Shown: piece after piece, positions 2,202 to 31,265 of the stretch
Layout: every line of letters starts with the position of its first letter
Numbering within the stretch: the stretch's first letter is position 1
NCBI RefSeq assembly: GCF_009617975.1
Contig: NZ_CP040089.1
Location: 450,001-482,000, forward strand
Direction: 5' to 3'
DNA: 32,000 bases
Source: Candidatus Nanohalobium constans
Lineage (GTDB): Archaea > Nanohalarchaeota > Nanosalinia > Nanosalinales > Nanosalinaceae
The notes under the pieces: generated by a model
What the model was told of the DNA's origin: nothing
Seen by the model: the letters and a program-made list of their open reading frames with translations, nothing else
The model's database searches: none
Position numbers and translations under genes: made by a program

Positions 2202-3332
2202 TTACCAGTGCTCTTCGATTAGTGCTGAGGAGAAAAGTATCAGCATTGAGAACACTACTATTTCTATCCATATACCTCTGTAGATGACTGAGGCGAAGAG
2301 TAGGGGTACTATGACGATGCTTTCTATTATCAGGAATTTGATGAATGTTCCTGTCTGGTAGAATCGGATATTTGGCTTCAACTTAGTCAGTTTCTCAACT
2401 ACCACCAAGCTGTACATAGTAGTGGTATAGCCGATTAACAGAGCCAAGAAAAGGTCACCAGGATAGAACAGGTAGGCCACAAGAATCAATAATGTGGTTA
2501 AAGGCAAGGTTAGGATTGTGTAGGCCTTTTTCTTTGAATCCACAAGACTTCTGTACTTGACAGGCAGGTAGTCGTAGTCTTTCAACGAGTCAAAACGATT
2601 AATCCAGTTGTAGACGCTGAGATTGGCGATTCCTACGACGACGCTGAATGAAAGCAGAGGATTCCGCAGAAATGCATTAGCGATGGGGAAGAAGAACACG
2701 AAATACCAGTAGAAGAATGTCAGTAAACCCAGGGAAAAAATAATCTTCAAGAAACCGCCGGTCGACCGTGAAACATCGATGAATGCCTTGTTAGTGAGAG
2801 AATCAATCGGGAGATCCATTTCTGGTTTCAAGATTCTAGGTCGAGTGAAATGACTGATTGAAAGGCTTAGAGCTGCTGCTAAGCTGAAGAAACCCATCAT
2901 TTCCGGAAGAGAATAGATCACAGGGAGGTGGAAAACTGCGAAACCTGCTGTCACAGGCAAGGTAAGTATCAAGCTGTAATACAGTATGTCTTTTATCAGG
3001 AATGCCGCGCCTAATTTCCGCCCACTCAACGGAAGTGTTTGGGATGTATATACGAGATACTCGGTCTGACCTAATACATTTTGGAAAGCGTCTCTGCCGT
3101 AGAAACCGATAGTGCCTGCTGCCAGACCGAACATTCCACCTAAGGCAAGAAGTCCTGCATCCAGGATTTCAGGATTGAGTGTGGAATAATTAACTGTGAA
3201 GTATGAGAATGCTGCGGCAAAAATGAAAACCAGTACAGGGAAAAGTGCAAAGCTGTGACCTCTGTAAATCCGGGAGTGGCTTCTCCATTCTTCAACCATC
3301 ATCATCCATACAATCTTCAAGAACTGTTTCAT
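2202..3332 (-). CDS. Polytopic membrane protein, putative permease partner of the adjacent ABC ATPase
   Basis: About 10 hydrophobic segments. Its ATG overlaps the upstream ATPase stop in ATGA (3329..3332), which implies translational coupling. Confidence 0.6.
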   Translation of the reverse strand: MKQFLKIVWMMMVEEWRSHSRIYRGHSFALFPVLVFIFAAAFSYFTVNYSTLNPEILDAGLLALGGMFGLAAGTIGFYGRDAFQNVLGQTEYLVYTSQTLPLSGRKLGAAFLIKDILYYSLILTLPVTAGFAVFHLPVIYSLPEMMGFFSLAAALSLSISHFTRPRILKPEMDLPIDSLTNKAFIDVSRSTGGFLKIIFSLGLLTFFYWYFVFFFPIANAFLRNPLLSFSVVVGIANLSVYNWINRFDSLKDYDYLPVKYRSLVDSKKKAYTILTLPLTTLLILVAYLFYPGDLFLALLIGYTTTMYSLVVVEKLTKLKPNIRFYQTGTFIKFLIIESIVIVPLLFASVIYRGIWIEIVVFSMLILFSSALIEEHW

Positions 3333-7610: not shown

Positions 7611-8813
7611 ATGAGACGCAGTGATTTGTTCGCCACTGTATCCAAAGAGTCTGTCTCAGATGCTGACTGCCGTAGCGAAGAGTTGGCGATTAAAGCAGGT
7701 CTGATTCACAGTTACGGCTCAGGAACCTTTGGATACACTCATCTCGGGAAGAAAGTGCTCGATAACATTGAAGAAGTAATTAGAGATGAGATAGATGAGG
7801 TAGCTCAAGAAGTCAGAATGAATCTCCTGCAGACCTCTAAACTATGGAAAGAAAGTGGTCGGTGGAAAGACTTCGAGGGGGAAGAGTTCTTCCACTTCAA
7901 AAACAGAGATGACAAGGATTTCTGTCTAGCAGCAACACATGAAGAAGCAGTGGTTGGAATGGCTCGAAAGTTTGTAAGAAGCTACAGAGATCTCGACTTC
8001 ACAGTTTATCAGATTGGTCGTAAGTTCCGTGATGACCATGCTAGGAAAGGACTTCTAAGGGCTAAAGAATTCACGATGAAGGATGCCTACAGCTTCCACA
8101 GAAATGAAGACAAACTTGATAGGAAATTTGAAGAGATGATGGAAGTCTACCGCAGAATCTTTGACAGAATAGGACTTGAGTACTCTGTGGTAGGTGCTGA
8201 TAACGGCTCAATGGGTGGAGATACCTCAAGGGAGTTCATCGCCGAGGCAGAGGTCGGTAGCGACACCTACATGAAATGCAGAGGCTGTGAGTTTGGCACT
8301 AAAAACCTAGAGGCTTCAGAATGCCGTGAATGCGGATCTGAACTAGAAAAAGTAAATGGCATTGAGGTTGGTCACTGCTTCAAACTTGGCACTAGATACA
8401 GCAGCTCAATGAACTTAGACTTCACTACTGAGGAAGGAGAGAACAAATCGGTGGTCATGGGCTGTTACGGCATCGGAGTTTCCCGCCTGATTTCAGCTAT
8501 TATCGAACAAAGCAACGATGATCAAGGGATAACCTGGAACCGGGAAGTTGCAGCATTTGACACAGCAGTAGTCCTCGCTAGCGAAGAAGAAAAAGCCTGT
8601 AACAAGGCGGAGAAAATTTATCAGGACCTAAGTGAGGAAGAGGAAATTCTTCTCTACGAGGGAGAAATGTCGATCGGTGAGAAATTTGCCGAAGCAGATC
8701 TGATAGGAGTGAACAGGAAAGTTATCGTCGGCAACAATTTTCTCGAGAATGGAGTTATCGAAGTAGAAGATAGAACAGGTCATACCGAACTCGTCAAGGA
8801 GGTGGCAAAATAA
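7611..8813 (+). CDS. proS: Prolyl-tRNA synthetase, bacterial-type architecture, lacking the INS editing domain
   Basis: Collinear with bacterial ProRS: MRRSDLF..SKE...DA, ESGRW, ATHEE, YQIGRKFRDD..ARKGLLRAKEFTMKDAYSFH (motif 2 region), GIEVGHCFKLGTRYS, MGCYGIGVSRLISAIIEQ (motif 3), and a C-terminal anticodon-binding domain. It is only 400 aa: about 40 residues with a CxxC...CxxC sit where the ~180-aa INS domain normally lies. Confidence 0.9.
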   Translation: MRRSDLFATVSKESVSDADCRSEELAIKAGLIHSYGSGTFGYTHLGKKVLDNIEEVIRDEIDEVAQEVRMNLLQTSKLWKESGRWKDFEGEEFFHFKNRDDKDFCLAATHEEAVVGMARKFVRSYRDLDFTVYQIGRKFRDDHARKGLLRAKEFTMKDAYSFHRNEDKLDRKFEEMMEVYRRIFDRIGLEYSVVGADNGSMGGDTSREFIAEAEVGSDTYMKCRGCEFGTKNLEASECRECGSELEKVNGIEVGHCFKLGTRYSSSMNLDFTTEEGENKSVVMGCYGIGVSRLISAIIEQSNDDQGITWNREVAAFDTAVVLASEEEKACNKAEKIYQDLSEEEEILLYEGEMSIGEKFAEADLIGVNRKVIVGNNFLENGVIEVEDRTGHTELVKEVAK

Positions 8814-8843: not shown

Positions 8844-8916
8844 GGCGGGATGGTGTAGTGGACTATCATTGGCCGTTTGGGACGGCCAGACCCCGGTTCA
8901 AATCCAGATCCTGCCA
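8844..8916 (+). tRNA. tRNA-Pro (anticodon UGG), 73 nt, no encoded CCA; T-stem has two C-A mismatches
   Basis: Manual fold. Acceptor GGCGGGA/TCCTGCC has 7 bp including one G-U. D-arm GTGT/TCAT with GG in the loop. Anticodon stem GGCCG/CGGCC with loop TTTGGGA. T-loop TTCAAAT. Discriminator A. T-stem CCCGG/CCAGA pairs at only 3 of 5 positions. Confidence 0.65.
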
Positions 8917-9098: not shown

Positions 9099-9392
9099 TC
9101 AGACCCGTGCCTTGATTCTTTGTATCGACTTCTGTGTGTAGGCATCGTCGCGGTGTTCGACACCAAGAACCACGACCTTCCTGCCGTCAAGCTTGAAGAA
9201 AACTCTGTGGTCCAGCTCGTCGTCCTTGAGCTTCAATCGAAAGATCTCCAGACCCTGCTTGCTCATAAGAGAGGTATTCTCACCGAGAGGGCTTTCCCTC
9301 AATTCCTCCATCTTGGTCCGTATCTGTCTCTGAACCTGTTCATCCATTTCCTTCAGGTCCTCGACAGCACCGTCCCGTACTTCGAGTTTCAT
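9099..9392 (-). CDS. RelE/ParE-family type II toxin
   Basis: 97 aa. C-terminal pattern IFRLKLKDDELDHRVFFKLDGRKVVVLGVEHRDDAY matches the RelE/ParE fold signature (R.R.G.yR..y......v.vl.v.hR..aY). Its ATG overlaps the upstream gene's stop (ATGA at 9389..9392). Confidence 0.75.
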   Translation of the reverse strand: MKLEVRDGAVEDLKEMDEQVQRQIRTKMEELRESPLGENTSLMSKQGLEIFRLKLKDDELDHRVFFKLDGRKVVVLGVEHRDDAYTQKSIQRIKARV

Positions 9393-9637
9393 TCAGACAA
9401 CCCAAGCTCCTCGTCCAACTCTTCCAGCGTGTAACCATCTGACTCGCCTTCCTCGTACTCTCTCAACCGTCTCCGTAGCTTCTCCGCTATCTCTGGCCGC
9501 AGTACAAGATCTTCTTCGACCTTGTCACGGAGTGCTTCACGGACATACTCAGAGGTACTGTTGTAGTTTTTCCTCTCAGCTACGGCTTCGATCTCGTTTT
9601 TCTGGTTATCTGGAAGTTTGATCGTCAACGATGCCAC
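9389..9637 (-). CDS. Ribbon-helix-helix (CopG-like) antitoxin
   Basis: 82 aa. N-terminal beta-strand plus helices (SLTIKLPDNQKNEIEAVAE...SEYVREALRDK) typical of RHH antitoxins. Acidic C-terminal tail. GTG start. AT-rich TATA-like aaaattttaaaaatg lies about 35-45 nt upstream. Confidence 0.7.
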   Translation of the reverse strand: MASLTIKLPDNQKNEIEAVAERKNYNSTSEYVREALRDKVEEDLVLRPEIAEKLRRRLREYEEGESDGYTLEELDEELGLSE

Positions 9638-11649: not shown

Positions 11650-12837
11650 ATGGATACTGCGACTTTGAGATTCGGTTTTCTTTTGGGTATGGTTGGTTTG
11701 ATTTTTGCACTTTTGTGGCGTGATCGGGAGAATGTTGAACGCTCTGGAATTCTTTTCTATCGGAGGACGAAGAATGGTTTGGATCTTATTGACCGGGTTG
11801 CTAAGAGGTTTCCTCGTTTCTGGAAGGTTTATTCTTGGGGCGGGGTTTTGGCTGCGGCTGTGTCTGTGCCGTTGATTTTTTACTCCATTTATGAACTTGT
11901 TTTGAAGGTTGTGCGGACGGGTCAGCCAGCCGAGGGTGCTGGAGTGGTTTATCCTTCTACCGGGAGCACTATTTCTCAGAGTGCAGGTGCTATCGGTGTG
12001 CCTGCTGAGTACTGGTTTATTTCGATTGGAATACTAATGGTTGTCCATGAGTTGAGTCATGGTGTTATTGCGAGGGCTCAGGACTTCGATATTAATTCTG
12101 TAGGTGTCTTGGTGCTTGGAGTTATTCCGGGTGCTTTTGTTGAGCCGAAGGGTAGTGGTTTGCCTGGTGATGATGGAGGTGATGAGGCTAAGCCTCACGG
12201 TGCCTGGGATCAGGGAGACTGGATTTCCCGTGTCAAGGTTTTGGCGGCTGGAAGCTGGGCGAACTATCTTACTGCTGGTTTGTTCCTGGTACTGGCTTTA
12301 GGTTTTACTTCAGCAACCTCTAATCCCGCGGGAATTGTTTATCAGGCTCAGGATGACTTTCCTGCTGGTGAAGCCGGTATGACGAACGGTACTCTTCAGG
12401 CTGTCGGAAATCAGACTGTGGCTGATATTTCGGATATCAAGGCTGCTACCGAGGGTTTGCAGTCAGGTGATTCGTTAGAATTGGTTACTACTGAGGGAAA
12501 CTTTTCTGTCACAGCTACTTCGAAGGAAGGATTTGATGGAGGTTATCTGGGGCTTCAGTTCCTAAGTGTTGATAGAGAGTACAAGGATGGTCTGAAATCT
12601 TTCAGCGGGTTTTTGTCCTGGTTCGGAGGCTTACTGAATATTGTGGCGTTTCTGAACCTGGGTATTGGAATGTTTAACATGTTCCCTGCTAAGCCGCTTG
12701 ATGGGGGTCATATCTTGGATGCAGTTATTGAACGGTTTGCTGGTGAGGAGTATACTCAGTATGTGAATGCCTGGTCAGGAGCAGTTCTTTTGCTGTTGGT
12801 TGGTGTTATAGTTTACAGCATCATCGGTCCGTTCTAG
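11650..12837 (+). CDS. M50-family site-2 protease (RseP/S2P-like zinc metalloprotease) with a PDZ-like insert
   Basis: HELSHGVIA (HExxH in a TM segment) and NLGIGMFNMFPAKPLDGGH (NxxPxxxLDG motif), with multiple TM segments. The track start at 11644 is TTG; ATG at 11650 is preferred. Confidence 0.85.
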   Translation: MDTATLRFGFLLGMVGLIFALLWRDRENVERSGILFYRRTKNGLDLIDRVAKRFPRFWKVYSWGGVLAAAVSVPLIFYSIYELVLKVVRTGQPAEGAGVVYPSTGSTISQSAGAIGVPAEYWFISIGILMVVHELSHGVIARAQDFDINSVGVLVLGVIPGAFVEPKGSGLPGDDGGDEAKPHGAWDQGDWISRVKVLAAGSWANYLTAGLFLVLALGFTSATSNPAGIVYQAQDDFPAGEAGMTNGTLQAVGNQTVADISDIKAATEGLQSGDSLELVTTEGNFSVTATSKEGFDGGYLGLQFLSVDREYKDGLKSFSGFLSWFGGLLNIVAFLNLGIGMFNMFPAKPLDGGHILDAVIERFAGEEYTQYVNAWSGAVLLLLVGVIVYSIIGPF

Positions 12838-12881
12838 GATTTCCATTCCTTTCTTAATTTTTCATTTCCACTTTCTTTTCT

Positions 12882-13187
12882 ATGACTCATAAAATTGAAG
12901 TCGTTGATAGGGACGAAGTAGTTGAGGCTGAGGACGGACAAGATATACTTCAGGCTCTGCTGCATGGCGGTGTTGAATGGATGCATGCCTGTGGTGGTTT
13001 CTGCAACTGTACTACTTGTCGTGTCAAGGTGGAAGAGGGTATGGAGAATCTTAGTGAGATGCAGGAGGATGAGAAGAATACTCTGCGGCGTTTCCAGGGA
13101 GAAGAAGTCTTGGAAGGTCCTTTCCGATTGAGTTGTCAGGCTGATGTTCACGGCGATATCAAGATTTCGGAGCCGGAGTGGTACTGA
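12882..13187 (+). CDS. fdx: [2Fe-2S] ferredoxin
   Basis: 101 aa, acidic. Cluster-binding ACGGFCNCTTCRV (C-x4-C-x2-C) plus the distal RLSCQ cysteine. Confidence 0.85.
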   Translation: MTHKIEVVDRDEVVEAEDGQDILQALLHGGVEWMHACGGFCNCTTCRVKVEEGMENLSEMQEDEKNTLRRFQGEEVLEGPFRLSCQADVHGDIKISEPEWY

Positions 13188-13189
13188 AT

Positions 13190-13585
13190 ATGAATCCTAG
13201 GAGTCATGCGGTAATTTCTCTTGTTCTCGGTCTTTTGCTTGGAGTTTTGAAGCAGGAGTTGTTTGTTGAGGTTGTCTTTGTGGCTTTTGTTTCCGGTACT
13301 TTGATTGATGTGGATCACTTTGTGGTTGGTCGTTTTGTGCATGGTGACTGGCGTTTTTTGAAGTCTACTTTCTCCAGTTTCTGGGCTTCGGTAACGGATG
13401 TTCAATCGGTTGTCGGTGAAGAGGAAGAGTTTGGACCACTTTACAGGATTTTCTCTCATTCAGTGATACTGATGATTTTGATGATTGCTGGTTTCTACAG
13501 TGATATTTTACTGATTGAGGTTGCCGCTGTTTCTACAGGAGTTCATCTGTTGTCTGATCTGTATGCGGATGTGTTTCTCTGGTAA
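13190..13585 (+). CDS. Small membrane protein, DUF457/YdjM-like metal-dependent hydrolase family (tentative)
   Basis: N-terminal PRSHAVISL and LIDVDHF motifs set in hydrophobic helices. ATG at 13190 lies just after the ferredoxin stop (the track start 13178 is GTG inside fdx). Confidence 0.55.
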   Translation: MNPRSHAVISLVLGLLLGVLKQELFVEVVFVAFVSGTLIDVDHFVVGRFVHGDWRFLKSTFSSFWASVTDVQSVVGEEEEFGPLYRIFSHSVILMILMIAGFYSDILLIEVAAVSTGVHLLSDLYADVFLW

Positions 13586-13624
13586 ATCCAAAGAATTAGA
13601 AGAATAAGAGAACAAGTATTTAAC

Positions 13625-13732
13625 ATGGTGGATTTTACATGCTGGAACTGTGGGTTGGAGATGCGTAAGCATGTTGCGTGTGAGTTGAAGTGCGATAACT
13701 GTGGTTTTATCCGTGATTGTTCTGATCCTTAG
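13625..13732 (+). CDS. 35-aa zinc-ribbon micro-protein (below the ORF-track length cut-off)
   Basis: ATG..TAG ORF: MVDFTCWNCGLEMRKHVACELKCDNCGFIRDCSDP, with CxxC-x9-C-x3-C-x2-C spacing. The overlapping 114-aa minus-strand track ORF lacks acidic composition or motifs. Confidence 0.45.
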   Translation: MVDFTCWNCGLEMRKHVACELKCDNCGFIRDCSDP

Positions 13733-13982
13733 TTCTGTAGACTCTTTGGTATGTATGTTTGTTACATAGGCCGAGCATTGTCTGGTTTTTGCATCCCTCT
13801 CTGCAGCATTCTCTAAACATCCTGTTTCTGACTTCTCCTTTATTTTAACCATTCATGCAGAAAACCATATATTATATAAAAGTTGTGGTAAATCACATTG
13901 GTGTAGCTATTAAGTGTAATGGTTTTTCGGGTTTGGACCGAAAACATTATAACTTTTTGTTATCTAATGGTGATAATATATT

Positions 13983-14165
13983 ATGGAAACAGTTGACTGC
14001 CCCTACTGTGGAGAAACCTTTGAAGGAGAAAGCGAAGCAGATGCTAGAACCAAGGAAGGTGTCCACAGAGCAGAGAATCATGTGAACAACAACGAGTCTA
14101 CAAAGAAGGCTTCCAAAGGAAGAAATATCGTCGATGAATGGAAGTCAGAAGGCAAAAGAGCCTAA
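13983..14165 (+). CDS. 60-aa small zinc-finger protein (CxxC...H...H)
   Basis: METVDCPYCGETFEGESEADARTKEGVHRAENH has C2H2-like spacing and a basic tail. An AT-rich TATA-like stretch (cattataactttttg) lies about 30 nt upstream. Confidence 0.55.
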   Translation: METVDCPYCGETFEGESEADARTKEGVHRAENHVNNNESTKKASKGRNIVDEWKSEGKRA

Positions 14166-23361: not shown

Positions 23362-23952
23362 GTGGCTGAATTAAGGAATAGGCTGTCAACCTCACGGTTT
23401 GCTGGAGAAAAAGTAAACTCTGTTCTTTCAGGATTACTATCAGTCTATCTCTTGTTCAACTGCTTCAATATACTTCTTGATAACAATTTAACTTGGGCAG
23501 TTTATGGTTTCGCGGTTCTTGTATTGGTTTTTCTTCCACCAGTATATTTCGAGGACAGATCCGCGCTTGTACCTTTTGAATTACTTTTCTTCCTAGCTAT
23601 CCCGTTTACTTTGAAGGGTTTAGAACTTGGTTTTGCAGCCTCGACCACTTTGAATTATTTGTCGGCAGCGGGGATCGCGCTCCTGGTCGTAACAGAGCTT
23701 GATACTTTCACTTCTTTCAAGTCTAGTGCGGCTTTTGCCGTTGTCCTGACTTCCTTTACTACGGTCGCGATGGCAGGTATTTGGGCAGTTTCTCGTTGGC
23801 TTTCAGATATATACCTAGGAACCTCTTTGATGGTGGCAGAGAATACATTAATGTGGGAGTTCACAGCAGCTTTCCTCACAGGGATACTATCAGGAGTGAT
23901 ATTTCAGTACTATCTGAAGGAAAGGAGTGAGGTGATCCAAAGTGAAGATTAG
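23362..23952 (+). CDS. Hypothetical polytopic membrane protein
   Basis: 196 aa with 5-6 hydrophobic segments and a GTG start. Its 3' end carries the Shine-Dalgarno sequence for the next gene. Confidence 0.5.
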   Translation: MAELRNRLSTSRFAGEKVNSVLSGLLSVYLLFNCFNILLDNNLTWAVYGFAVLVLVFLPPVYFEDRSALVPFELLFFLAIPFTLKGLELGFAASTTLNYLSAAGIALLVVTELDTFTSFKSSAAFAVVLTSFTTVAMAGIWAVSRWLSDIYLGTSLMVAENTLMWEFTAAFLTGILSGVIFQYYLKERSEVIQSED

Positions 23953-24604
23953 GGATAAACTTGGCATCTCCAAGAAGATGCAGGAAACAGCCACTAGGTT
24001 TATGCAGATTATCCTGGTTTCTATAGCAGCTCTTGGGGTATGGATAGGCAGTTTCAAAGTATTCATAAATGCATTTATCAGTTTCCTGATCACCTTCCTA
24101 CCTTCATTGCTGAGAAAAAGATATAAAATTACTATAGATGCTGGATTAGCTCTATGGATCACTTCTGCAGTATTCTTCCATTCTATAGGCGCCGTTAACC
24201 TGTTTGGACAAAATCTTTACACCTCGATCCCGTGGTGGGATCACTTCACCCATGCACTATCAGCATCTGTCATCGCAGCCGCAGGTTACTCGGTTTTAAG
24301 GGCGTTAGACGAGCACTACGAACAGCTCTACTTCCCTAAAAAGCTTTACTTCGTATTTATTATAATTTTCATTGTTGCATTCGGAGTTATCTGGGAAGTC
24401 CTCGAATTTGGAATAGCTGGGTTAGCTGATCTGGCAGGAGGAGAACCAATACTAACTCAGTACAGTTTAGAGGATACAATGAAAGACTTGATGTTTAATA
24501 CTGCAGGAGCCCTGATTGTGGCAGTATTCGGTGAGGCATATCTAAACAATACAGTCGAGCTACTGAAACAGAAAATAGAAGAACTAGACGGCTCAGAAAA
24601 ATAA
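23942..24604 (+). CDS. Hypothetical polytopic membrane protein (WWDHFTH / WEVLEF / EDTMKDLMFNTAGA motifs; possibly DUF2238/YjdF-like)
   Basis: GTG start preceded by GAGGTGATCC (23929..23938), a 10-nt perfect complement of the conserved archaeal 16S 3' end GGAUCACCUC. It overlaps the upstream gene by 11 nt. The family assignment is by memory of motifs only. Confidence 0.55.
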   Translation: MKIRDKLGISKKMQETATRFMQIILVSIAALGVWIGSFKVFINAFISFLITFLPSLLRKRYKITIDAGLALWITSAVFFHSIGAVNLFGQNLYTSIPWWDHFTHALSASVIAAAGYSVLRALDEHYEQLYFPKKLYFVFIIIFIVAFGVIWEVLEFGIAGLADLAGGEPILTQYSLEDTMKDLMFNTAGALIVAVFGEAYLNNTVELLKQKIEELDGSEK

Positions 24605-24628
24605 CGCTTGGGATTCAAAAAGTGTCTT

Positions 24629-25354
24629 ATGAAGGTTCAAACCCAGGATCCAAGAGAGGAAGAGCTGCGTGAAAGAGTCCGGGAAGTAGCTGAAAAATAT
24701 GGTTTGGAGATAGAAAATGAGCTGGACGATGTCGGTGTAAAATACCTCGGCACCTATGTAAACGCACAGACAAGTTTGGAAGGTCCTAAACTGAGGATTG
24801 ATTTTGACTCCCACAACTTCTTCAAGCAGTCAGAGAAGCGGCAGAGAAGAATTATTCTCCACGAACTGATCCATGTCAAGCAGTTCAACAATTCTCTAAG
24901 TGACTGGGCGGAGAACGAGTTCGATGTCTCAGATGAGGTAGCTGAGAAACTGGATGGAACGATTTGGGAGGATGTCAGAAGCGTTGAAGGTGAGACAGAG
25001 TTGTTGCTTTCATCGTTTTTCCCTGAACAGGATAGCAGCTACCCCTATGCACAGAGTTCAAAGGAAAGAGAGTTTGATGGAATAGACCTGGATTCCGAGT
25101 TTGATTCAAACACCGAGGATGAACTAGATGATATAATTGATGAGTACAAGTTGAAGGAAGATTCATGGGACGAAGACGGTCTTTACATAGAGGAAGGGGA
25201 GTTCAAAGGAGTTGAGTACTCCGTCGCGGTCATAGGAAGCTATGAAAGCCCTGAGGAAAAAGTAGACGAATATCTTACCCGGGTACAGGAACCAGATTAC
25301 GGGATTCAAGAAGATTCTTCCGATTACTCGCCTGGCGCCCTCGGAATGATTTAA
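24629..25354 (+). CDS. Acidic protein with a single HExxH motif (putative zinc metallopeptidase-like)
   Basis: RRIILHELIHVKQF is the only recognisable motif. The rest is highly acidic. ATG 24629 is preferred over TTG 24608. Confidence 0.5.
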   Translation: MKVQTQDPREEELRERVREVAEKYGLEIENELDDVGVKYLGTYVNAQTSLEGPKLRIDFDSHNFFKQSEKRQRRIILHELIHVKQFNNSLSDWAENEFDVSDEVAEKLDGTIWEDVRSVEGETELLLSSFFPEQDSSYPYAQSSKEREFDGIDLDSEFDSNTEDELDDIIDEYKLKEDSWDEDGLYIEEGEFKGVEYSVAVIGSYESPEEKVDEYLTRVQEPDYGIQEDSSDYSPGALGMI

Positions 25355-25358
25355 AAAA

Positions 25359-25808
25359 CTAGTTTACCAAGTTATTTTGTTCCTGGTAGCTTTCCTGTGA
25401 GTTAGGATCTAAGGTAAGCCAGATGTTTCCATCACTTTCTTCTTCAACAGTTAAACGATCTTCAACATCCGCAAATGTCTGAACATCATCAGGATTAGTC
25501 CAGTCAGCCCGTTTATCGACAACAGCCTCAATATACCTCTTAATAGATTCACTGTCATAACTAGGAGCTTCAACACTCTCACCCACTAAATCAGTAACAG
25601 CGCCCACAAAACCATCCAAATAATTAGAAACCATGCCCAAACCCTCACGGGGTTGTTCACTGCCCGACATATCATCTTTAGGAACAATAACTGCTTTGCC
25701 TCCCTCACCACGCGAAATAGCTTCGTAAACATCTTCAGCCAACTCCTTATCGTCCCTGACATGCATATAACCCTTATCCAAAGAACCAGACCTCTCAACA
25801 TCCAACAT
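25359..25808 (-). CDS. Hypothetical acidic protein
   Basis: 149-aa ORF with an ATG start and halophile-type composition. It is convergent with the previous gene (4-nt gap). No motif recognised. Confidence 0.5.
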   Translation of the reverse strand: MLDVERSGSLDKGYMHVRDDKELAEDVYEAISRGEGGKAVIVPKDDMSGSEQPREGLGMVSNYLDGFVGAVTDLVGESVEAPSYDSESIKRYIEAVVDKRADWTNPDDVQTFADVEDRLTVEEESDGNIWLTLDPNSQESYQEQNNLVN

Positions 25809-28102: not shown

Positions 28103-28795
28103 TCAGCAATCTTCATAATCAACTTCTGCGGGACAAGTCACGTTTACTGCTAGAACATCTAAACTAGTCTTTTCAGCCTCTACCAGTCCGTAAACAGTCT
28201 CTATGGTGTACTCTCTTTCGCCTGTGAAATTAGCCCAGACTGTTGCCACATCATCTTCACGCAAATCTCCATGCTCGTTCAACCAAAAACTGTGGTCATT
28301 CATCCCATCATGTACTTCCAGGATAACGCCTGGCTCGGTCTTTTCAGGATACGACTCTATAATCCTGCCCTCCAACCTGTAAATATTCCCCATATACCGG
28401 TCATCAACATTGCCTGTATCTGAAAGTTCACTGATCGAATAATTCTTCTCACTGAGATTTACAGTTTGATCCAGAACCTCAGTAAAATTCATCTCATCAC
28501 CTTGAGCTGGTGCCTCCGCTGTCTTTGAAGAGATTCCACCAAGCACAGTTGTCAATACTAACCCGGTTATTGCCACTCCGATAAGCAACCACCTCGAGAA
28601 CTCTAAGTCATATCTCTCCCTAATCATCTGACGCGATTTCGGCGTTACAACAACAGCAACAACCAACGCAATTAAACCAGCAAACATGTTAGAAAGTGAC
28701 AACAGGATTAATCCATAAATAAATTCCATTAATCCAACTAACAGGAAAAATCCACCTGTCAACCATGCTAGAACCTTTGAAACTGTGACTTCCAT
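28103..28795 (-). CDS. Hypothetical membrane protein (3 N-terminal TM segments, extracytoplasmic C-terminal domain)
   Basis: 230-aa ORF with an ATG start. No family recognised. A short hairpin AACGC-TAA-GCGTT lies just past the stop. Confidence 0.55.
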   Translation of the reverse strand: MEVTVSKVLAWLTGGFFLLVGLMEFIYGLILLSLSNMFAGLIALVVAVVVTPKSRQMIRERYDLEFSRWLLIGVAITGLVLTTVLGGISSKTAEAPAQGDEMNFTEVLDQTVNLSEKNYSISELSDTGNVDDRYMGNIYRLEGRIIESYPEKTEPGVILEVHDGMNDHSFWLNEHGDLREDDVATVWANFTGEREYTIETVYGLVEAEKTSLDVLAVNVTCPAEVDYEDC

Positions 28796-28896: not shown

Positions 28897-29025
28897 TGGT
28901 CCACCCGGGATTCGAACCCGGGACCGCCGCCTCACTTATGGAGAGGCAACACACAGGTCTTTCGACTAGGTTTTCTGTGTGAGGTCCTTATAAGGACGGT
29001 GCTCTAACCCCTGAGCTAGTGGACC
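28897..29025 (-). tRNA. Intron-containing tRNA, spliced anticodon UAU (tRNA-Ile); 73-nt mature, 56-nt intron at 37/38 (28933..28988)
   Basis: Reverse complement GGTCCAC-TA-GCTC-AGGGGTTA-GAGC-A-CCGTC-CTTATA|intron|A-GGCGG-CGGTC-CCGGG-TTCGAAT-CCCGG-GTGGACC-A. The acceptor, D and T stems are perfect. Exon nt 32-35 (CTTA) pair with intron nt 51-54 (TAAG) as a 4-bp helix, flanked by 3-nt bulges TA|A and TG|A, i.e. a BHB motif. The outer intron helix is slightly relaxed. Confidence 0.75.
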
Positions 29026-29076
29026 CGAGAGGTTGTATAGAATGGGTTCGGGTGTAATCCTAAAAAAGGCTTTGAG

Positions 29077-30417
29077 TTAGTCTGGTTTTTTCTTGTTGGG
29101 CGTGTGGTCTATTGGTGTCTGCATTTTTCCGGGTAGTTTGAAGTCTGCGATTACTTGGAGTCGTTCTGGTCCTTCTCCGGGGCGGTGCTGATCTGATCCC
29201 GGGATAAATGTGTCTAGGTTTTCCCACAGGATGGAAGGAGGATATCTTTCTGCGTGTTTGCCGCCGATTTCTGGTATGTAGTTTTCTGCATTTTTAGCTG
29301 CGTCTATAAATGGCTGCCAGAATTCAAGTAATGCTTCTTCTGGGTAGAGGCTGTTCATCTCTTCATCTGTCACTGCTAGCTCTACAAACTCTTCAAACTT
29401 GTTTTCAACTGGTTCTGAAACTTTTTCTACTGCTTGGTTGTCTATGCTGCTGTGTTCTATGAATTCCCGTATCTCGTTTTCGGCTTTTGGTTTTTGGAAA
29501 ACTTTCATTAGTTCTGAGCTTCTTTCGGGCAGTGCTGGGTGTGCTCCTGAGACAGTTACCTCGTATTCTTGAACTGCTGGCGCTAATTTTTCTGCTACTG
29601 CTATGAGTTTTTCCCGGTACTTCTTCCAGACCTCCTTTTTCTGATCTGTCGTTAATTCTTCGAATGGCTCATCTTTCTTAACATATCTAAACTGGTCTTC
29701 GATGTATACATCGTGAACTGCCTGGTTCAGATGATTTATTGGAGCATTCTCCGATTCTGAGTTCTCCAGGAATTCGCATATGTTCTCTACATAGTTGTCA
29801 ATATCCTGTTCTTTGATCCTGGTTCTCCCATTTTCCGGGTTGAAATCTGTCTCCGCTGCATTAAATATAATCATCCCATAGTTCAGTGCACATGTTTCAC
29901 GAAGCTCTCTTATCGAATAGTCTCCCTCCACCTCTCTCAGAATCTCCATATCTTCCCTAACTTTCTCTTTATCTGCGTTCTCCCAGAGCACGATACCGGC
30001 GTCATCTTTACTGCTAGGAATCTCTCCATCTTCAACTACCTCAGTTATCGCTTCATCATACCGATCCGAGAACACCTCTGAAACAGAAATATCTGATTCT
30101 GCATTATCTCCTATGACATCATGTTTATTGTAGAAGGCGGAAGAGTATTCCTTAGGTTCTTCACCGACATTTACATGGTCGGAAACACCTTTCATGTATA
30201 CTCCTTCTTCATAAGCCTCTACAACTACATCTATAACAGGTTGCCTTCCATCAGAGTAATTTGTTTGAGTGTGCAAATCAACTATCTGCTCTAAAGAATA
30301 AGATTCTTCTCCGGTCTCCTCCACAGTTTCAGCGTCAGAGAGACCTATACTCACTTCATCCTCAGGCACCCATGTATATCCAGTACTTCGAATTTTTTTC
30401 TCAGAGGAAGAAACCAT
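29077..30417 (-). CDS. PHP-domain-like protein with large acidic insertions
   Basis: IVDLHTQTNYSDGRQ (PHP motif I, but the second His is Gln), GVSDHVNVG, SGAHPALPE and GSDQHRPGE resemble the His/Asp motifs of HisJ/PHP phosphoesterases. 446 aa. TATA-like aaatataa lies about 25-30 nt upstream of the ATG. Confidence 0.55.
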   Translation of the reverse strand: MVSSSEKKIRSTGYTWVPEDEVSIGLSDAETVEETGEESYSLEQIVDLHTQTNYSDGRQPVIDVVVEAYEEGVYMKGVSDHVNVGEEPKEYSSAFYNKHDVIGDNAESDISVSEVFSDRYDEAITEVVEDGEIPSSKDDAGIVLWENADKEKVREDMEILREVEGDYSIRELRETCALNYGMIIFNAAETDFNPENGRTRIKEQDIDNYVENICEFLENSESENAPINHLNQAVHDVYIEDQFRYVKKDEPFEELTTDQKKEVWKKYREKLIAVAEKLAPAVQEYEVTVSGAHPALPERSSELMKVFQKPKAENEIREFIEHSSIDNQAVEKVSEPVENKFEEFVELAVTDEEMNSLYPEEALLEFWQPFIDAAKNAENYIPEIGGKHAERYPPSILWENLDTFIPGSDQHRPGEGPERLQVIADFKLPGKMQTPIDHTPNKKKPD

Positions 30418-30557: not shown

Positions 30558-31265
30558 ATGCAGATGACTAATCAGCAGCAACAGTATGATCGTGGAATCA
30601 CAATCTTCTCACCAGACGGAAGACTATTCCAGGTAGAATACGCAAAAGAAGCAGTTAAGAAAGGAGCAACAGCTCTAGGGATAACATACGACGAAGGAAC
30701 AGTCCTGGCAGCAACAAGAAGCACGCCAGAGCTCCAGGTCAGAAACCCGGAGAAAGTATTCAAAGTGGATGAACACCTTGGAATCGCAACATCGGGACTT
30801 GTAGCAGATGGGAGAAAACTTGTTGATGAAGCAAGGAATGAAGCACAGAAACACATGATGACATACGACGAAGAAATCCCAACAAGTGTCTTAGCGAAGT
30901 TCATCGCTGACAGATGTCAGCACTTCACACAGTACGGAGGAGTAAGACCTTACGGGCTCTCCACAATCACAGGAGGAATCAAAGACGGGAACCCAAAGGT
31001 CTACCACACCGACCCATCAGGAACACTCAACCAGTGGAACGCAATCGCAATCGGAAAAGGAAGAGAAGAAGCAAACGAACACCTAGAAGACGAATGGGAG
31101 AGAGATCTGAGTGAAGACGAAGCAATCGACCTAGCAGTCTCCGCACTTAAAGAAGGCGAAGAAGACATCGAACTGGAAAACATCGAACTCTCAGTAGTCG
31201 ATGAAAAAGACAACTTCCAAAGATTCACTCCGGAAGACCTCGACGAAAAAGGAGTCGAATTCTAA
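30558..31265 (+). CDS. psmA: Proteasome subunit alpha
   Basis: YDRGITIFSPDGRLFQVEYA N-terminal signature, GIATSGLVADGR, a full alpha-subunit length of 235 aa, and an acidic C-terminal tail. Confidence 0.93.
   Translation: MQMTNQQQQYDRGITIFSPDGRLFQVEYAKEAVKKGATALGITYDEGTVLAATRSTPELQVRNPEKVFKVDEHLGIATSGLVADGRKLVDEARNEAQKHMMTYDEEIPTSVLAKFIADRCQHFTQYGGVRPYGLSTITGGIKDGNPKVYHTDPSGTLNQWNAIAIGKGREEANEHLEDEWERDLSEDEAIDLAVSALKEGEEDIELENIELSVVDEKDNFQRFTPEDLDEKGVEF

Follow-up and report, generated by a model that had tools for sequence, protein, structure and literature searches.

Of all sense codons, AUA alone is read by nearly all bacteria and archaea with a specially modified cytidine. In the canonical archaeal system C34 of tRNA-Ile2(CAU) is converted by TiaS to agm2C (agmatidine), and AUA is read without AUG. 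Nanoarchaeum equitans and Ca. Korarchaeum cryptofilum have a tRNA-Ile(UAU) in place of this C*AU species and no TiaS (PMC3919564, PMC6000648), and these are the two lineages that a preliminary description of the DNA considered here had named; its list was right as far as it went and incomplete, since a report of 2011 describes tRNA-Ile(UAU) in ARMAN-2, -4 and -5, together with the lack of both TiaS and tRNA-Ile2(CAU) (PMC3239211). The ARMAN-2 pre-tRNA-Ile(UAU) carries a 25-nt intron at position 37/38 and is cleaved in vitro by the organism's own endonuclease (Fujishima et al., 2011; PMC3239211). Outside the archaea, yeast tRNA-Ile(UAU) is matured to ΨAΨ, with the intron being required for the formation of Ψ34 and Ψ36 by Pus1 and blocking ncm5U34 (PMC11408192), and the tRNA-Ile2(UAU) of Mycoplasma mobile has an unmodified U34 (PMC3575796).

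We describe here a gene of this type in a window of 32 kb, the whole stretch of DNA analysed, from Candidatus Nanohalobium constans LC1Nh, an archaeon with a single chromosome of 973,463 bp, 43.2 % GC and 39 tRNA genes (PMC7443923). The 129-nt pre-tRNA-Ile(UAU) gene occupies 28897..29025 of the minus strand, with the 5′ end of the RNA at 29025, and was identified with the Rfam model RF00005 and with ARAGORN in its intron mode (-i). RF00005 matches the strand from 29025 to 28897 end to end with 52.4 bits (gathering threshold 29; E=1.1e-8), all of model positions 1-71 being matched and a single large insertion falling right after CUUAUA. ARAGORN with introns allowed reports a tRNA-Ile(tat) of 73 nt with a 56-nt intron at 37/38, i(38,56); its default run makes no call at 28897-29025, because the intron mode is then not in use. 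A pattern built from the exons and covering the gene matches once in the window and in none of 100 dinucleotide-preserving shuffles.

The 5′ exon (28989..29025, minus strand; tRNA positions 1-37), delimited by comparison of seven homologues, ends in ...CCGUC CUUAUA, and it includes the anticodon UAU (positions 34-36) at 28990..28992, where the plus strand reads ATA. It is followed by the 56-nt intron at the canonical 37/38 position (28933..28988, minus strand; RF00005 and ARAGORN) and by the 3′ exon (28897..28932, minus strand; positions 38-73), AGGCGG...GUGGACCA, which is near-identical across the homologues. With the intron removed, the 5′ half of the tRNA reads GGUCCAC UA GCUC AGGGGUUA GAGC A CCGUC CUUAUAA and the 3′ half GGCGG CGGUC CCGGG UUCGAAU CCCGG GUGGACC A. 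All stems of this spliced cloverleaf are paired, with U30-G40 the sole wobble, and the hallmark bases of a tRNA are in place, namely G18 and G19 in the D-loop and a T loop of UUCGAAU. The anticodon loop is CUUAUAA, with U34, A35 and U36 followed by A37; CCA is absent from the gene, in which A73 is followed by UAU. The preliminary description had placed the gene at exactly these coordinates, with a 56-nt intron at 37/38, a 73-nt cloverleaf with the loop CTTATAA and a spliced UAU anticodon of an AUA-reading tRNA-Ile. Each of these claims was upheld: the ends of the gene by the end-to-end RF00005 match on the minus strand, the intron by the RF00005 insertion, by ARAGORN -i and by the boundaries of conservation in the seven homologues, the cloverleaf by ARAGORN -i and its fully paired stems, and the anticodon by both programs and by the comparison of homologues, in which it is invariant.

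ARMAN-2 (Ca. Micrarchaeum acidiphilum) shares with the window gene its DPANN affiliation, a genome of ~1 Mb, the UAU anticodon and a 37/38 intron whose pairing with the anticodon loop forms a BHB. The short ARMAN-2 intron (25 nt) is, however, set in a strict hBHBh′ motif and served by a three-unit epsilon2 endonuclease, whereas the window gene, from the Nanohaloarchaeota lineage, has an intron of 56 nt (51-117 nt in its relatives) with a structured hairpin and a relaxed 5′ side. The Korarchaeum tRNA-Ile(UAU) gene is intron-bearing too, although Korarchaeum and N. equitans belong to other phyla and are hyperthermophiles, and the comparison with them is one of published descriptions. Yeast tRNA-Ile(UAU) resembles the window gene in its anticodon, in a ~60-nt intron at 37/38 that pairs with the anticodon and in the eukaryote/archaeal type of IleRS (PMC11408192, PMC11685878). 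Eukaryotic cleavage, however, follows a ruler mechanism and not a BHB. We know of no Pus1 orthologue in archaea beyond enzymes of the TruA family. Bacterial tRNA-Ile2(UAU) likewise reads AUA through UAU in reduced genomes that have lost the cytidine-modifying enzyme (PMC3575796), but it has no intron and goes with a bacterial-type IleRS. The canonical archaeal pair of tRNA-Ile2(CAU) and TiaS performs the same task as the window gene and differs in that position 34 is here a genomically encoded U.

In the 35 ORFs of the window AUA accounts for 174 of 565 isoleucine codons (31 %), or 20 per 1000 codons, a frequency about that of AUG, and a codon this common requires an efficient decoder. Searches with real TiaS proteins (tblastn) gave no match at E<=0.7 in the window and eight archaeal loci (~85 kb in total), and neither ARAGORN nor Rfam detects a CAU tRNA within the 32-kb window. 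The TiaS family itself was searched with an Archaeoglobus fulgidus TiaS query, which proved 100 % identical to a real TiaS (P0010; Pfam PF22641/PF01336/PF23783/PF08489); the best 120 of 5154 matches were all Archaeoglobales-like. As the window represents 32 kb of a ~973-kb genome, we have weighed the possibility that TiaS and tRNA-Ile2(CAU) are encoded elsewhere in it and that the UAU species, though real, is a redundant or minor decoder of AUA. This seems distinctly improbable, because all published archaeal cases of tRNA-Ile(UAU) lack both TiaS and tRNA-Ile2(CAU) (PMC3239211, PMC3919564, PMC3575796), because the genome is strongly reduced, with its 39 tRNA genes (PMC7443923), and because AUA is a common codon in the window. 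We consider it likely that the locus is a functional AUA-reading tRNA-Ile gene of Ca. Nanohalobium constans, spliced at 37|38, and that its product would most likely replace tRNA-Ile2(CAU) and the agmatidine formed by TiaS, by analogy with other DPANN archaea. Given that precedent, the absence of tiaS and of tRNA-Ile2(CAU) from the genome is a likely prediction, and the wider genome-level expectation of the preliminary description, in which a special modification of U34 is added to these two absences, is plausible for a DPANN genome.

Homologues of the gene were sought with patterns of its exons. A gapped pattern scan of metagenomes yielded five true homologues among the ~120 matches listed, on the contigs L181, L205, L185, L208 and L142, most of the other matches being tandem bacterial tRNA pairs; L205 comes from a soda-lake brine sample, to judge from the sample name, so that at least one homologue is from brine. 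A scan of genomes with the 5′-exon pattern gave three archaeal loci among the 120 matches listed: L023, from a Candidatus Nanohaloarchaea MAG, which provides the sixth homologue; L044, from an Aenigmarchaeota MAG, in which a tRNA(UAU) has a 37/38 intron of ~37 nt; and L094, from the Pacearchaeota MAG SKYB115, in which a tRNA(UAU) (3080-3201, minus strand) has two introns, of ~36 nt at 37/38 and of ~13 nt in the T loop, and is matched by Rfam with 52 bits and not called by ARAGORN. The remaining 117 of the 120 matches listed are bacterial, from Patescibacteria/CPR, Planctomycetota, Chloroflexota, Actinomyces and uncultured Gammaproteobacteria, and these are intron-less as far as they were checked. 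If they are tRNA-Ile(UAU) genes, the spread of this type among bacteria would go well beyond the handful of species for which it is commonly cited.

Comparison of the window gene with its six homologues reveals exons that are 93-100 % identical (mean 97 %) within flanking DNA in which identity is at the random level (0.50 over 60 nt upstream and 0.45 over 40 nt downstream, against 0.48 for shuffled sequence). The introns vary from 51 to 117 nt, and their first 45 nt average 66 % identity. Positions 4-37 of the 5′ exon are identical in all seven genes and the first intron nucleotide is A, C or U; at the other end the last intron base is G, A or C and the 3′ exon begins with AGGCGG in all seven. 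Variable bases thus abut invariant exon ends, and conservation stops exactly at the predicted 37|38 junctions. In the aligned sequences the proposed structure has 96.7 % of its cells paired, as against 28-49 % when the partners are shifted by one to three columns; two acceptor pairs have changed on both sides, 2:71 from G-C to C-G and 3:70 from U-A to A-U, and the observed covariation score was matched by none of 500 shuffles. On this comparative evidence the locus is a real, conserved archaeal intron-containing tRNA gene.

The preliminary description had also assigned to the intron the BHB geometry of archaeal splice sites, and this holds for one half of the motif better than for the other. 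Since the unconstrained MFE fold of the precursor contains neither cloverleaf nor BHB, we note that the motif was assessed from constrained folds, with the anticodon stem enforced, together with the comparative evidence. In such folds the central helix, between C32 U33 U34 A35 (28991..28994, minus strand) and the UAAG at intron nt 51-54 (28935..28938, minus strand), has a pair probability of ~0.9. Across the seven homologues 89 % of its cells are paired; one pair varies from U-A to U-G, and the 3′ strand reads UAAG, UGAG, CGAG, GAAG or UUAG. Between this helix and the anticodon stem the 3′ splice site is held in a 3-nt bulge, UG|A38 (28932-28934, minus strand). The 5′ bulge, UA|A, would be closed by the outer helix GGA/UCC, which includes an extra unpaired A and has a pair probability of only ~0.1, and U36 pairs with that extra A with a probability of 0.79, which would make a 5-bp helix and a 2-nt bulge. 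The CUUA/UAAG helix and the 3′ bulge claimed earlier are therefore retained and to speak of a perfect BHB would be an overstatement, the outer helix at the 5′ bulge being weak; as modelled, the motif is best described as a relaxed, partly canonical BHB, with a canonical bulge-helix in its 3′ half and a relaxed or BHL-like 5′ half. For the anticodon arm and intron folded freely, two alternative hairpins beat the anticodon stem (-24.6 vs -20.9 kcal/mol). This disruption of the stem, together with the weakness of the outer helix, implies that correct cleavage depends either on the body of the tRNA or on the use of an endonuclease tolerant of relaxed motifs; DPANN endonucleases with such tolerance have been described (PMC3239211, PMC5829648). 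No EndA gene is present within the 32-kb window. Free folds prefer a different pairing, of intron GGAC with G29-C32 and of intron GCCUC with the last intron base, A38 and G39-C41, for which there is one possible covariation (in L208); we take it as a competing fold of the precursor and not as the splice motif.

The imperfect 5′ side of the splice motif and the free fold that breaks the anticodon stem are features that might be expected of a decaying or silent tRNA pseudogene from which the intron is no longer removed. We think this very improbable, in view of exons that have stayed near-identical where the flanks are randomised and where even the proteasome proteins encoded nearby are just 76-89 % identical, of the compensatory changes in the acceptor stem, of the retention of the central helix and anticodon in all seven homologues, and of the heavy usage of AUA in the window. 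The alignment argues for a gene under strong purifying selection, which is neither a chance cloverleaf nor a pseudogene.

If the anticodon stem is taken as given, 56 nt can be removed in only eight ways that leave a loop of 7 nt. Whenever four or more bases of the 5′ side remain, the anticodon is UAU; the other cuts give anticodons that vary between homologues, and 37/38 is the sole cut that produces one and the same loop (CUUAUAA, with A37) in all seven. That other splice sites might yield a different anticodon such as CAU, for which the string CCAUAAG near the 3′ end of the window intron could be cited, and that there would then be no AUA-specific UAU species, merits hardly any credence, because most homologues lack this string and show CUCGAGAG, CGAAGAG or the like in its place, and a hidden CAU anticodon is rejected on that ground.

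For a tRNA-Ile(UAU) spliced at 37|38, the following course of maturation may be proposed. The 129-nt precursor would probably be transcribed from its own promoter, for which there is a candidate in the BRE/TATA-like element AAAGCCTTTTTTA at 29061..29073 (minus strand), 36-48 nt upstream of the mature 5′ end; the AAAGCCTTTTTTA motif recurs with similar spacing in L181 and L205, where the remainder of the flank cannot be aligned, and is on these grounds a putative archaeal promoter. C32-A35 would pair with the UAAG close to the 3′ end of the intron, presenting the 3′ splice site in the 3-nt bulge beside the anticodon stem, and the 5′ site would lie in a bulge or loop that is not so well closed. 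By the known archaeal pathway the splicing endonuclease would cut on the 3′ side of A37 and on the 5′ side of A38, and the exons would be joined by a ligase of the RtcB type, with CCA presumably added after ligation. A37 would be available for t6A, which would be formed before the decoding of AUA. IleRS of the eukaryote/archaeal type recognizes a carbonyl acceptor of N34 that is common to G, I and pseudouridine (PMC11685878), and since U34 also has such an acceptor this enzyme is expected to accept it and the charging of tRNA(UAU) with isoleucine by IleRS is plausible. The mature tRNA-Ile(UAU) would then read AUA, and may avoid AUG with U34 either modified or unmodified.

Within the intron a conserved hairpin (28950..28981, minus strand) shows compensatory changes among the seven homologues. 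It consists of a 7-bp stem (CACACAG/CUGUGUG), an 8-nt A-rich bulge, an inner 3-bp stem and a GAAA tetraloop, and both sides have changed in four of the seven outer and two of the three inner pairs, the outer stem being paired in 97.9 % of cells. The tetraloop is GAAA in the window gene and L023 and GCAA in L142, with looser apical loops in the other four, and intron nt 2-6 (GGACC) are invariant among the homologues. This pattern suggests that the hairpin has been maintained under selection while the flanking DNA was randomised, although its conservation may reflect no more than a requirement of splice-site presentation. In the Haloferax tRNA-Trp type of intron-dependent anticodon modification the intron is of the box C/D kind; inspection by eye shows no box C (UGAUGA) in the intron described here, and the window copy also lacks a box D (CUGA).

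A 37/38 intron is present in all the archaeal tRNA(UAU) genes found among the matches listed (seven nanohaloarchaeal, one from Aenigmarchaeota and one from Pacearchaeota), and the published ARMAN-2 and Korarchaeum genes are likewise intron-bearing (PMC3239211; PMC3919564, PMC6000648). The anticodon pairs with the intron, as Pus1 requires, although the same is true of any 37/38 BHB intron. One could speculate that archaeal tRNA-Ile(UAU) always carries this intron because it is needed for correct maturation of the anticodon, as in eukaryotes; its role may then be in the modification of U34 and U36, or in shielding U34 from wobble modifications of the xm5U type that enable the reading of AUG. We regard this generalization as unlikely, and the plain inheritance of an old intron with no function beyond splicing is compatible with the same evidence.

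The surroundings of the gene are those of an archaeal chromosome, with genes for TFIIB, an archaeal histone fold and a class I LysRS elsewhere in the window, a GC content of 43.4 % and an acidic proteome (D+E 17.5 %, K+R 9.9 %). The gene for the proteasome alpha subunit (psmA; 30558..31265, plus strand; Pfam PF00227/PF10584) is a conserved neighbour of the tRNA, and psmA homologues, with a protein identity of 76-89 %, are found ~0.1-1.6 kb from the tRNA in five of the six homologous loci (L181, L185, L208, L205 and L023). Between tRNA and psmA the window has a gene for a PHP-domain protein of 446 aa (29077-30417, minus strand), for which a set of 5.8 billion proteins contains only eight further homologues. 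The tRNA and psmA stand side by side in L181 and L185, ~125-185 nt apart, and the PHP gene therefore looks like an insertion beside the tRNA. ORFs of 149-248 aa at 23362-25808 and 28103-28795 have no Pfam or NCBIfam match, and one of these is the 230-aa ORF directly downstream of the tRNA.

Several other features of the window deserve mention. A ProRS of 400 aa (7611-8813, plus strand) is classed by its score with the bacterial type (TIGR00409 proS_fam_II, 408 bits; cutoff 306.7), and as it is ~170 aa shorter than the profile the insertion/editing domain is apparently absent. A tRNA-Pro(UGG) gene (8844-8916, plus strand) follows 30 nt downstream; it has four non-standard pairs, scores 40 bits and is missed by the default Rfam filters. 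The archaeon may have acquired this ProRS/tRNA-Pro pair horizontally. At 9099-9637 on the minus strand lies a type II toxin-antitoxin pair, composed of a ParE-family toxin (97 aa) and an antitoxin of the ribbon-helix-helix type (82 aa), whose genes overlap at a stop and a start codon. GC skew is strongly positive (0.27) over 12001-14000; plus-strand ORFs of this segment match Pfam, as a 2Fe-2S ferredoxin (12882-13187) and a YdjM-like protein (13178-13585), and the minus-strand ORFs that overlap them have no Pfam match and are probably spurious.

As genome annotation the finding is an ordinary one, and since other very small DPANN archaea are known to use UAU for AUA it adds an example rather than a mechanism. 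None of the papers searched states the presence of tRNA-Ile(UAU) and its intron in Nanohaloarchaeota, and none ties agmatidine or TiaS to DPANN beyond ARMAN; the arrangement of UAU with an intron is now placed in the Nanohaloarchaeota. Taken with ARMAN, Nanoarchaeum and the Aenigmarchaeota and Pacearchaeota MAGs, this case suggests that the UAU solution is common across DPANN. Lineages with a plain UAU show how a reduced translation apparatus copes without the cytidine-modifying enzyme, and because Ca. Nanohalobium constans grows in laboratory co-culture its tRNA can be purified and position 34 analysed, which would tell how an archaeal U34 avoids AUG.
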